Shown here piece after piece: positions 38,870 through 40,651 of a DNA stretch of 64,000 bases (positions within the stretch are counted from its first letter, which is position 1; each line of letters opens with the position of its first letter). The notes beneath the pieces are model-generated. The model saw only the letters and a list, made by a program, of their open reading frames with translations, was not told the DNA's origin and ran no database searches. Origin of the DNA: Escherichia coli (lineage in GTDB: Bacteria; Pseudomonadota; Gammaproteobacteria; Enterobacterales; Enterobacteriaceae); assembly GCF_003790525.1 (NCBI RefSeq), contig NZ_CP033635.1. One strand, given 5' to 3'. A program made the translations under genes and the position numbers.

Positions 38870-40651
38870 TCAGGCGCTCAATGATTCCTCTTCACGCACG
38901 CTGGCTGCCAGCTCTTCGCCCGCAAGTTGCAGTTGATACATCTGCCAGTAGCGTCCCTGGGCCGCCAACAGTTGCTGGTGAGTGCCCTGCTCCACGGCTT
39001 GCCCACGATGAAGCACCAGAATAGTGTCGGCATCAACAATAGTTGATAAGCGGTGAGCAATCACCACCAGCGTGGTATGCTCACGCACCGCCGCCAGAGC
39101 ATGTTGAATTGCCTGTTCAGTACCGGAGTCAATGCTGGCTGTTGCCTCATCAAGGATCAGGATTTGCGGCGTCTCCACCAACACGCGTGCCAGTGCCAGC
39201 AGTTGCTTTTGCCCGACTGAGAGATTATTCCCCTGCTCGCCAAGCGGCGTGTAAATACCGTCGTTCATGCTACGCGCCAGCTCCGTCAGTTGCACGGTTT
39301 CCAGCGCCTGCCAGACGCGTTCTTCGGAGATATCACGTCCCAGCGTCACGTTGGCGAGGAAGGTATCCGCCAGCACCACCGGATCTTGCTGCACCATTGC
39401 CACGCCCTGGCGCAGCGCGCTGTGACTTAACGAACTTAATGGACGACCATCAAGGCGAATCTCACCTTCCGTTAGCGGGTAATAGCCCATCAATAAACTG
39501 GCGAGGGTACTTTTACCACTGCCGGTATGCCCGACCAGCGCCACAAAATTGCGCGAAGGCACAGAGAGATTAATGTTCTTTAGCACCATATTGTCATCGC
39601 GATAAGCAAATGACACGTTATCGACTTCAATGGTGCCGCTCTGCAACGGGCGATCATCATTGCCATATTGCTGGCGCGGTCCGTCCATCAGCTCAAACAC
39701 GCGCTCACCAGCAACAACAGCCTGTTGCAGCATCGCCTGTTGCGTGGTCAGTTCGATTAAGGGTTCGTTAAGCCGCCCAAGATAGCTGATAAACGCATAC
39801 AGTACGCCCACTTCAATGGTGCCGCTGACAGAGAAGCCAAACAGCATCAACAATCCACAAAGAATGAGCGATGAAAACAGACTCAGCAGCGGACGCAGCA
39901 GAAAACCGTCGAGGCGCAGGGTTTGCATCCTCGCCATATAGTGTGAACGACTGGCCTCACCCATACGTTCGCCAAATCGCGCCTGCTGACGGAACTGCTG
40001 GATAACGCTCATGCCATTGATGATTTCGTTAAAGCCGTCGTTGATATCCGCCAGATAGGCGCGCACACGACGGACAATCGGCGTGCTGTAACGCTGGTAT
40101 ATCACCATTACCACCAGCACCACCGGGAAAATCATTATCGCCACCAGCGCCATTCGCCAGTCGAGGCTGAACATCGCCACCAGCATCGCGCCCACCAGTG
40201 CGGCGCTACGCAGGACAGTTGCCACCACGGTAACGTAGAGATCGCGGATCACTTCAGTGTCATTGGTGACGCGGGAAATCACCTGCCCGACGGGTTGGGT
40301 ATCAAACTCGCTTAATGGCTGGCGTAACGCAGCATCCATCACGTCGGTACGCAACTGTTGCACTACGCCTACTGCCGCCCGATTAAACAGCAGCGACTGC
40401 GCGTAATGTAGCCCGGCGGCAAACAGTTGCAGCCCAACATACGCCGCAGCCAGCCCTGCAACCACTTTCAACGGCAGGTTATTTTTCGCTACCATATTGT
40501 CGATAAAATAGCTGATAAGCAGCGGCCCACTGACTTCTGCCGCAGCCGCAACCCACATCATCAGGACCGCAATCCCCAACGGTTTACGCCACGGCGAACC
40601 GTACGCTAACAGACGCTTGAGAGTCGGCCACAGTTGGCTAAAACTACGCAT
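38870..40651 (-). CDS. mdlB: ABC exporter ATP-binding/permease protein MdlB (593 aa)
   Basis: Track ORF 631 aa; start taken as [15 protein letters not shown]; Walker [13 protein letters not shown] signature LSVGQKQ; start overlaps the mdlA stop. Confidence 0.92.

Follow-up and report, generated by a model that had tools for sequence, protein, structure and literature searches.

Overlapping start and stop codons at four intra-operon junctions of Escherichia coli are consistent with translational coupling of neighbouring genes

The window analysed here, a continuous stretch of 64,000 nt of Escherichia coli DNA, is identical to the reverse complement of NC_010498.1:475601-539600 (E. coli SMS-3-5) and contains four pairs of co-directional neighbours whose coding sequences overlap, with junction spacings of -8 for mdlA/mdlB, -1 for ybaB/recR, -11 for cyoB/cyoC, and -1 for cyoC/cyoD (Table 1). 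A preliminary description of this DNA had listed these four overlaps, and both their positions and the completeness of the list are borne out by the sequence, by a mechanical list of open reading frames, and by the RefSeq annotation of the SMS-3-5 record. Co-directional overlaps thus occur at 4 of the 39 co-directional adjacent pairs in the window, or at 4 of 14 when only pairs spaced by 64 nt or less are counted, and their frequency is typical for E. coli, in which “more than 30%” of operon pairs are reported to overlap (PMC7538156). The window also contains a convergent 4-nt overlap between hemH and aes, which is of a different kind from the four co-directional cases. Genome-wide, the spacings -4, -1, and -8 are strongly enriched (reviewed in PMC12548453), and overlaps as a class therefore exceed what chance would produce.

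Table 1. Genes, overlaps, and Shine-Dalgarno (SD) elements at the four junctions (positions are those of the window).
Feature	Position	Strand	Description
ybaB	16883..17212	-	109 aa, YbaB/EbfC nucleoid-associated protein
recR	16278..16883	-	201 aa, recombination mediator; ATG without upstream SD
ybaB/recR 1-nt overlap	16883..16883	-	TGATG; ybaB TGA 16885-16883, recR ATG 16883-16881
mdlA	40644..42416	-	590 aa, GTG start, TAG stop; SmdA/BmrC-like ABC half-transporter; LSGGQ, Walker B ILILDDA
mdlB	38870..40651	-	593 aa, ATG start; SmdB/BmrD-like ABC half-transporter; Walker B ILILDEA, LSVGQ
mdlA/mdlB 8-nt overlap	40644..40651	-	5'-ATGCGTAG-3'; mdlB ATG 40651-40649, mdlA TAG 40646-40644
mdlB SD GAGGAGG	40658..40664	-	6 nt 5' of ATG; within last mdlA codons (Glu-Glu-Ala)
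cyoB	60658..62649	+	663 aa, cytochrome bo3 subunit I (annotation)
cyoC	62639..63253	+	204 aa, cytochrome bo3 subunit III
cyoD	63253..63582	+	109 aa, cytochrome bo3 subunit IV
cyoB/cyoC 11-nt overlap	62639..62649	+	ATGGCAACTGA
cyoC SD-like stretch, moderate	62623..62631	+	AAGGCAGGG; 7 nt 5' of ATG
cyoC/cyoD 1-nt overlap	63253..63253	+	TAATG
cyoD SD-like stretch GGGGGC	63241..63246	+	6 nt 5' of ATG; within conserved C-terminal Gly codons of cyoC

The existence of the overlaps depends upon the annotated downstream starts being the real ones, which is supported by a scan for SD elements, by N-terminal alignments, and by the conservation of the junctions. Every in-frame ATG, GTG, and TTG located up to 150 nt to either side of each annotated start was included in the scan, and none of these alternatives has a better SD at any of the four junctions. 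The predicted SD duplex energies of the annotated starts are -11.8 kcal/mol for mdlB, which has a strong element (GAGGAGG), -8.0 and -8.4 kcal/mol for cyoC and cyoD, which have moderate ones, and -1.5 kcal/mol for recR, which has none. Downstream starts with better SD support had been named in the preliminary description as the observation that would speak against its reading; they were looked for at all four junctions and are absent, leaving the annotated starts as the best supported. It is conceivable that the overlaps are annotation artefacts and that the true start lies further 3' at one or more junctions, since the N-terminal 20-25 residues of CyoC and 12 residues of CyoD are missing from the model in some cryo-EM entries and lack conservation among distant homologues. 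Although CyoC (204/204 residues) and CyoD (109/109) are identical to chains of the solved cytochrome bo3 complex (1FFT and 6WTI), we rejected the PDB chains as proof of the two N-termini, because the full-length deposited sequences derive from gene models and the modelled residues begin only at about 21 for CyoC and about 13 for CyoD. Even so, an artefact seems scarcely credible: no in-frame ATG, GTG, or TTG further 3' matches the annotated SD at any junction, RecR aligns with P. aeruginosa RecR from residue 1 (helix-hairpin-helix), residues 12-53 of MdlB match the N-terminus of BmrD, the mdlB ATG-CGT start is kept in all 80 species among the closest mdlB loci listed, and the start contexts of cyoC and cyoD recur across other Enterobacterales.

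The preliminary description had also proposed conservation of the overlaps as a check, and the outcome differs between the junctions. For mdlA/mdlB, a scan of a genome collection gave the closest 80 mdlB loci, all from Enterobacteriaceae, and the -8 spacing is present in 80/80 species among these closest loci. Within the same set, the SD region of mdlB carries 1.68 bits per column versus 0.3-0.7 in its flanks, with GAGGAGG itself present in 57/80 loci and a GGAGG core in most of the others. The SD and the ATGCGTAR block are thus far more conserved than their surroundings among these loci, whereas the adjoining end of mdlA differs among them in sequence as well as in length. Further afield, a small sample of distant mdlAB-like pairs, drawn from PLSDB chromosomes that are mislabelled as plasmids, exhibited spacings of -4, -14, -17 (or -8), -4 (or -1), and +109. 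The pair with the +109 spacing belongs to Aeromonas (47% identity) and may be a paralogue rather than an orthologue.

In 10 additional operons sampled from alpha-, beta-, and gamma-proteobacteria, the cyo junction spacings remain between -11 and +4. The cyoB/cyoC spacing is -11 in Pectobacterium and Rahnella, -1 in Pantoea and another enterobacterial contig, and -4 to +4 outside the Enterobacterales, while the -1 spacing of cyoC/cyoD is also found in Pantoea, Pectobacterium, Rahnella, Acinetobacter, and Paracoccus. Conservation is also seen for the cyoD SD. At the ybaB/recR junction the spacing varies, being -1, +6, +25, and +119 in four distant loci, and in 3/7 distant loci the two genes are not neighbours. 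Accordingly, conservation holds for the invariant mdlA/mdlB junction among the closest loci listed and for the narrow range of cyo spacings, but not for the exact values, which vary between orders, nor for ybaB/recR. During these comparisons we also encountered a 314-aa open reading frame (P0166) joining YbaB to RecR, which was rejected as evidence for a functional link between the two proteins, because it occurs once, on a metagenome scaffold of 1.2 kb, and probably results from a frameshift error.

We consider it very likely that all four are ordinary intra-operon junctions of E. coli at which the two genes are translationally coupled. A ribosome completing the upstream gene would arrive on or beside the downstream start, where it could re-initiate (termination-reinitiation) or at least keep the start unfolded for a new 30S subunit, and either route would tie translation of the downstream gene to that of its neighbour. 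Translation of recR, which lacks an SD, probably requires coupling to ybaB; at mdlB, cyoC, and cyoD, an SD inside the upstream coding sequence would help to capture the ribosome, such that coupling is likely, though not necessarily exclusive. Re-initiation as the mechanism at these latter three starts is our own inference, whereas the dependence of RecR upon ybaB and the near-proportional synthesis rates discussed below are taken from the literature. The ybaB/recR junction was the only one of the four with documented coupling in the literature we reached, as no coupling experiments for mdlA/mdlB, cyoB/cyoC, or cyoC/cyoD were found there. According to PMC9610160, Mahdi & Lloyd 1989 and Yeung et al. 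1990 had already noted that ybaB and recR overlap by one base and that recR has no ribosome-binding site, and had inferred coupling of the two genes. The UV sensitivity of the Keio ybaB deletion is attributed to reduced RecR levels (PMC8547470). This overlap and its coupling have therefore been known since 1989-90, and the suggestion in the preliminary description that the overlaps are consistent with tightly coupled operons holds, the coupling of ybaB and recR being documented in these two papers.

Conversely, the overlaps could be a neutral by-product of compact genomes, in which the positions of stop and start codons drift and every downstream gene relies on its own SD, the overlap carrying no regulatory meaning. 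At mdlB, cyoC, and cyoD a usable SD is present, and because these elements would allow independent initiation, the overlap alone is no proof of coupling at these genes. Lineages also differ in spacing (-11 or -1 for cyoB/cyoC in Enterobacterales and -4 to +4 elsewhere; -17 to +109 for mdlAB-like pairs), and the -4 spacing in general is probably abundant simply because it evolves easily (PMC12548453). Furthermore, depletion of ribosome recycling factor hardly shifts the ratios of downstream to upstream ribosome density at overlapping pairs (PMC7538156), a result that argues against a simple 30S-reinitiation model. Coupling efficiency also declines with longer overlaps, which bears on the 11-nt cyoB/cyoC overlap. 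Nevertheless, drift of this kind is an unlikely explanation, as it accounts poorly for several observations: 1) recR has no SD and RecR declines in the ybaB deletion (PMC8547470), 2) the mdlA/mdlB spacing and SD are invariant in 80/80 species among the closest loci listed despite a variable mdlA tail immediately adjacent, 3) all of the cyo junctions lie inside the short range of efficient coupling, and 4) complex subunits in E. coli are 4.5-fold enriched at short spacings, with 30.4% of the pairs at -8 to +10 encoding such subunits versus 6.8% of those at more than 20 nt (PMC10666635).

Of the two routes to coupling, the unfolding variant is weakened at mdlB. In E. coli, opening of the -18 to +12 region of mdlB is predicted to be costly (14.3 kcal/mol, rank 49/54 among the genes in the window). 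However, RNAalifold applied to 81 orthologous mdlA/mdlB junctions predicted neither pairing of the SD or the start codon nor any compensatory substitutions. A conserved hairpin over the mdlB start was thus dropped as a candidate mechanism, and the lack of such a structure weakens the case for unfolding by the upstream ribosome at this gene.

The products of three of the four pairs would work together in fixed ratios, CyoB, CyoC, and CyoD as cytochrome bo3 subunits and MdlA and MdlB as a heterodimer. Ribosome profiling by Li et al. 2014, obtained for one condition and taken here from an excerpt of a secondary table (Mori et al. 2021, Dataset EV6), gives synthesis rates of 3421 for CyoA, 2179 for CyoB, 2749 for CyoC, 4458 for CyoD, and 870 for CyoE, as well as 20 for MdlA and 16 for MdlB. 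In these secondary, single-condition values, the rates of CyoA to CyoD agree within about 2-fold but are unequal, and proportionality within the cyo operon is only approximate, because CyoD is made at about twice the rate of CyoB. The preliminary description had associated the overlaps with stoichiometric complexes, which is upheld for CyoB/CyoC/CyoD as cytochrome bo3 subunits and for MdlA/MdlB based upon their complementary ATP-site motifs, but not for YbaB and RecR, which are merely co-expressed and are not a known complex.

Its further proposal that mdlAB probably encodes a heterodimeric ABC exporter receives good support. Judging from alignments and RefSeq family names (SmdA family for MdlA, SmdB family for MdlB), the adjacent mdlA and mdlB each encode a transmembrane domain fused to a nucleotide-binding domain. 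MdlA has a canonical signature (LSGGQ) and a Walker B motif lacking the catalytic Glu (ILILDDA), while MdlB has the catalytic Glu (ILILDEA) and a degenerate signature (LSVGQ), and this asymmetry recurs in 80/80 species among the closest mdlB loci listed as well as in Providencia, Proteus, and Aeromonas. The best PDB matches are BmrC for MdlA (2e-146) and BmrD for MdlB (2e-117), with nearly full-length alignments covering residues 4-576 of MdlA and residues 63-577 (plus 12-53) of MdlB. The motifs and structural matches make it well supported that MdlA and MdlB would form an asymmetric heterodimer with one degenerate and one catalytic ATP site, although no report of a physical MdlA-MdlB complex or of its substrate in E. 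coli was found in the literature we reached.

Could the two proteins instead be co-expressed but form separate homodimers, or could MdlA function alone, such that the overlap does not reflect a 1:1 complex? Cefazolin and vancomycin phenotypes have been obtained for an mdlA deletion but not for an mdlB deletion, leading to the suggestion that the two are independent and that MdlA may act by itself (PMC11408624). However, in Keio deletions the product of the following gene is commonly reduced (PMC8547470), so deletion of mdlA may also reduce MdlB and single-gene mdl phenotypes are hard to interpret. Moreover, two copies of MdlA would leave both ATP sites without a catalytic Glu and two copies of MdlB would bring together two degenerate signatures, whereas the two sets of motifs are complementary throughout the 80 species among the closest loci listed and in the three additional genera. 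Among solved structures, the nearest relatives are the paired chains of BmrCD, an obligate heterodimer. In addition, PMC11408624 cites Matsuo 2008 as having reported a heterodimeric Serratia SmdAB, and the synthesis rates of MdlA and MdlB in the excerpted table are near-equal. Separate homodimers are accordingly quite improbable, and the asymmetric heterodimer remains our preferred reading. As one tentative extension, for which we would claim only a modest chance, the invariant mdlA/mdlB junction may be under specific selection so that MdlB is translated from the mRNA, and possibly by the ribosome, that has just yielded MdlA, which would enforce 1:1 synthesis and cis assembly of a heterodimer whose halves are each inactive on their own. 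If true, the published view that MdlA does not need MdlB would have to be revisited.

Overlapping start and stop codons, along with their links to translational coupling and to complex subunits, are textbook features covered by recent reviews. The overlaps in this window are correct but ordinary and already known, as they reflect the usual, long-described packing and co-translation of bacterial genes within operons, and they have little significance beyond confirming that the gene models are correct. They do carry a caution for genetic studies, since deletions or insertions in ybaB, mdlA, cyoB, and cyoC can lower the downstream protein, as was shown for the effect of ybaB on RecR, and single-gene phenotypes at these loci therefore need complementation. 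A modest by-product is the sequence-level support for an obligate asymmetric MdlAB heterodimer, consisting of the motifs and the invariant junction in 80 species among the closest loci listed, which bears on the suggestion that MdlA acts alone.

When compared with known systems, each of the junctions has a close counterpart. The ybaB/recR pair is the published dnaX-ybaB-recR operon of E. coli; the locus is identical, and the overlap, the missing ribosome-binding site, and the inferred coupling had all been described, and the present comparison adds only that the overlap lacks deep conservation. MdlAB resembles the heterodimeric type IV ABC exporters with one degenerate ATP site, namely B. subtilis BmrCD (YheI/YheH), Serratia SmdAB, and Thermotoga TM287/288, with which it shares two adjacent half-transporter genes, a first protein lacking the catalytic Glu after Walker B, and a second protein with a non-canonical signature. 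BmrCD offers the most similar chains over nearly the full length (BmrC for MdlA and BmrD for MdlB). The cyoABCDE operon of cytochrome bo3 ubiquinol oxidase has the same gene order and tight junctions in Acinetobacter, Rhizobium, Sinorhizobium, Burkholderia, Paracoccus, and Ralstonia, differing between lineages only in the exact spacing. Finally, all four pairs resemble the coupled overlapping gene pairs of bacteria and archaea that employ termination-reinitiation, in that they are co-directional operon neighbours with overlapping start and stop codons. The ybaB/recR (TGATG) and cyoC/cyoD (TAATG) junctions belong to the classic -1 class and mdlA/mdlB to the enriched -8 class, whereas the -11 spacing of cyoB/cyoC lies slightly outside the range of -8 to +10 that is taken to predict re-initiation (PMC10666635). 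As is typical of such coupled pairs, three of the four encode known or predicted subunits of one complex.

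The four overlapping start/stop junctions that the preliminary description had placed at mdlA-mdlB, ybaB-recR, cyoB-cyoC, and cyoC-cyoD are all confirmed at their exact coordinates by the reading of both strands, ORF listing, and comparison with RefSeq (see table). The list is also complete, as the window's 39 co-directional neighbouring pairs include no fifth overlap. The overlaps are genuine, yet their frequency here is unremarkable: 14/39 such pairs are spaced by <=64 nt and 4 of these 14 (~29%) overlap, which fits the reported enrichment of -4, -1, and -8 spacings (PMC12548453; negative values denote overlap in nt). 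The window, with a gene content of copA through cyoE, is the reverse complement of NC_010498.1 (E. coli SMS-3-5) 475601-539600 (window coordinate = 539601 minus record coordinate); the 3.7-kb stretch around the junction finding is 100% identical to this record and found in 5423/5426 complete E. coli genomes. Separately, the convergent genes hemH and aes share 4 nt at their 3' ends (12375-12378), an overlap absent from the preliminary list and without bearing on translational coupling.

Overlapping junctions and Shine-Dalgarno (SD) or SD-like stretches of the downstream genes, in window positions
Junction	Strand	Upstream gene	Downstream gene	Shared	Sequence	SD	Spacer to ATG	Duplex energy (kcal/mol)
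mdlA/mdlB	minus	40644-42416	38870-40651	40644-40651, 8 nt	ATGCGTAG	GAGGAGG	6 nt	-11.8
ybaB/recR	minus	16883-17212	16278-16883	16883, 1 nt	TGATG			
cyoB/cyoC	plus	60658-62649	62639-63253	62639-62649, 11 nt	ATGGCAACTGA	AAGGCAGGG	7 nt	-8.0
cyoC/cyoD	plus	62639-63253	63253-63582	63253, 1 nt	TAATG	GGGGGC (63241-63246)	6 nt	-8.4

Downstream starts with better SD support had been named as grounds against coupling. When all in-frame ATG, GTG, and TTG codons lying up to 150 nt before or after an annotated start were scored against the 16S rRNA 3' end, no alternative outscored the annotated start at any of the four junctions. The mdlB energy was scored on the 9-nt window CGAGGAGGC, ending 5 nt from the ATG; for recR, the scan found no SD-like stretch (best duplex -1.5 kcal/mol). 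The annotated N-termini agree with an alignment to P. aeruginosa RecR that begins at residue 1 and with the match of MdlB residues 12-53 to the BmrD N-terminus. PDB chains match CyoC and CyoD exactly from end to end, which is not counted as independent proof of their N-termini because deposited sequences follow the gene model. Elsewhere, the RefSeq model of hupB (49576-49866, minus strand) has ATA as its first codon and is 18 nt longer than the classical 90-aa ORF, which starts with GTG at 49848. The mdlA gene itself begins 29 nt past decR (cyuR; spacer 42417-42445), with a GTG start behind a weak SD, features fitting its very low synthesis (~20 per generation) and reported co-regulation with cyuR.

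Ordinary translational coupling at operon junctions is the best reading of these overlaps and would hold partner proteins in step, presumably with SD assistance at mdlB, cyoC, and cyoD. For recR, coupling to ybaB is probably obligatory, because recR lacks an SD. Earlier publications describe this junction. According to the review PMC9610160 (citing Mahdi & Lloyd 1989 and Yeung et al. 1990), the ybaB stop codon ends on the same A with which the recR start codon begins, and the recR ATG has no nearby ribosome-binding site, so that translation of the pair is coupled. Likewise, the Keio ybaB deletion is UV-sensitive due to low RecR levels rather than the absence of YbaB (PMC8547470). Both sources back the coupling proposed for this pair, as does our scan, which reproduced the missing ribosome-binding site. 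The overlap lacks deep conservation: among seven distant RecR loci sampled from a representative search (39-58% identity), ybaB lies directly upstream of recR in four (spacings -1, +6, +25, and +119) and no adjacent ybaB is present in three. We know of no YbaB-RecR complex; thus, the suggestion of stoichiometric complexes suits CyoB/C/D and MdlAB, but not YbaB/RecR. In one compared protein, P0166 (L103:114-1058), a single 314-aa ORF spans a YbaB domain and the whole of RecR, though it is probably a frameshift at a ybaB-recR junction and not a real fusion, being a singleton from a metagenome scaffold of 1.2 kb. Other odd RecR fusions carry a DnaX N-terminus (P0227) or a TRAM domain (P0188).

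At mdlA/mdlB, conservation of the overlap is evident at close range. The exact -8 arrangement is kept in 80/80 of the closest mdlB loci (one genome per species, all Enterobacteriaceae, MdlB identity 84-99%), one of which was assigned by manual inspection because its mdlA is frameshifted upstream. The ATGCGTAR block carries 1.78 bits of information per column and the mdlB SD 1.68, compared with 0.3-0.7 for the spacer and for the mdlA tail, whose length also varies. The MdlA C-terminal tail before the embedded SD (40665-40700; columns 75-102 of the junction alignment A1) differs in sequence and length through in-frame indels, and the SD and start/stop block that follows is without variation among the same Enterobacteriaceae. 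Distant mdlAB-like pairs have other spacings: -4 in Providencia, -14 in Proteus, -4 or -1 in a Bacillus, -17 or -8 in Listeria, and +109 in Aeromonas. Providencia alcalifaciens (L098) keeps the order Lrp/AsnC regulator, smdA, smdB, tesB, ybaY, but lacks glnK-amtB, which in E. coli separates mdlB from tesB. Several PLSDB entries (NZ_OL790812.1, NZ_AP026896.1, NZ_CP093325.1, and others) are 4-5 Mb whole chromosomes labelled as plasmids; they supplied distant orthologues for this comparison, but are a pitfall for plasmid statistics. Coupling may work by re-initiation or by unfolding. The E. coli mdlB start region has a high predicted opening energy, but the aligned orthologous junctions contain no conserved RNA structure over that region, so this energy does not support unfolding as a conserved mechanism.

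Across ten cyo operons, very tight spacing is conserved, whereas the exact overlap is not. In Enterobacterales, cyoB/cyoC is -11 (Pectobacterium, Rahnella) or -1 (Pantoea, another contig), with cyoC/cyoD at -1 in 4/4; the respective spacings are +4 and -1 in Acinetobacter, +2 and -4 in Rhizobium and Ralstonia, -4 and -4 in Sinorhizobium, -1 and 0 in Burkholderia, and +3 and -1 in Paracoccus. The cyoD SD falls within conserved cyoC C-terminal Gly codons in 9/10 operons. It reads GGGAG or GGGGG, ~6 nt before the start, in Leu-x-Gly codons (L083-L092), a placement spanning alpha-, beta-, and gamma-proteobacteria, Burkholderia excepted. The cyoA-cyoB spacer (60637-60657) is 21 nt in E. coli and 3-4 nt in Pantoea, Pectobacterium, Rahnella, Acinetobacter, Burkholderia, and Ralstonia (L083, L086, L088-L091). 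Drift of exact spacings across lineages makes neutral compaction of the genome a partly true account, but compaction leaves the invariance of the mdlA/mdlB junction unexplained, and also RecR's dependence on ybaB. The preliminary observation is correct and complete and its interpretation sound, with the caveats given here; all of its elements are either known already or routine within a well-described class.

Ribosome-profiling rates (Li et al. 2014, back-converted from the products of mass and rate tabulated in Dataset EV6 of Mori et al. 2021) are 3421, 2179, 2749, and 4458 for CyoA through CyoD, thus within about two-fold among oxidase subunits, and 870 for CyoE, a non-subunit preceded by an 11-nt gap. 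In the solved cytochrome bo3 complex, subunits III and IV have exactly the sequences of CyoC and CyoD. The MdlA and MdlB rates, 20 and 16, are close to equal. It has been suggested that these two act independently of each other, as phenotypes arose from mdlA deletion and none from mdlB deletion (PMC11408624); however, such deletions commonly lower the next downstream gene's protein (PMC8547470), so mdlA deletion may reduce MdlB too. Their motifs instead favor the heterodimeric exporter proposed earlier. MdlA combines a canonical LSGGQ signature with a Walker B (ILILDDA) lacking the catalytic Glu, and MdlB an ILILDEA Walker B with a degenerate LSVGQ signature, an asymmetry present in 80/80 closest species plus Providencia, Proteus, and Aeromonas. 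By the architecture known from heterodimeric ABC exporters (BmrCD and TM287/288, for example), a head-to-tail dimer of nucleotide-binding domains would pair a degenerate ATP site with a competent one. RefSeq assigns the two proteins to the SmdA and SmdB families, and their best solved relatives, BmrC for MdlA (2e-146) and BmrD for MdlB (2e-117), are the two chains of one heterodimer, BmrCD.
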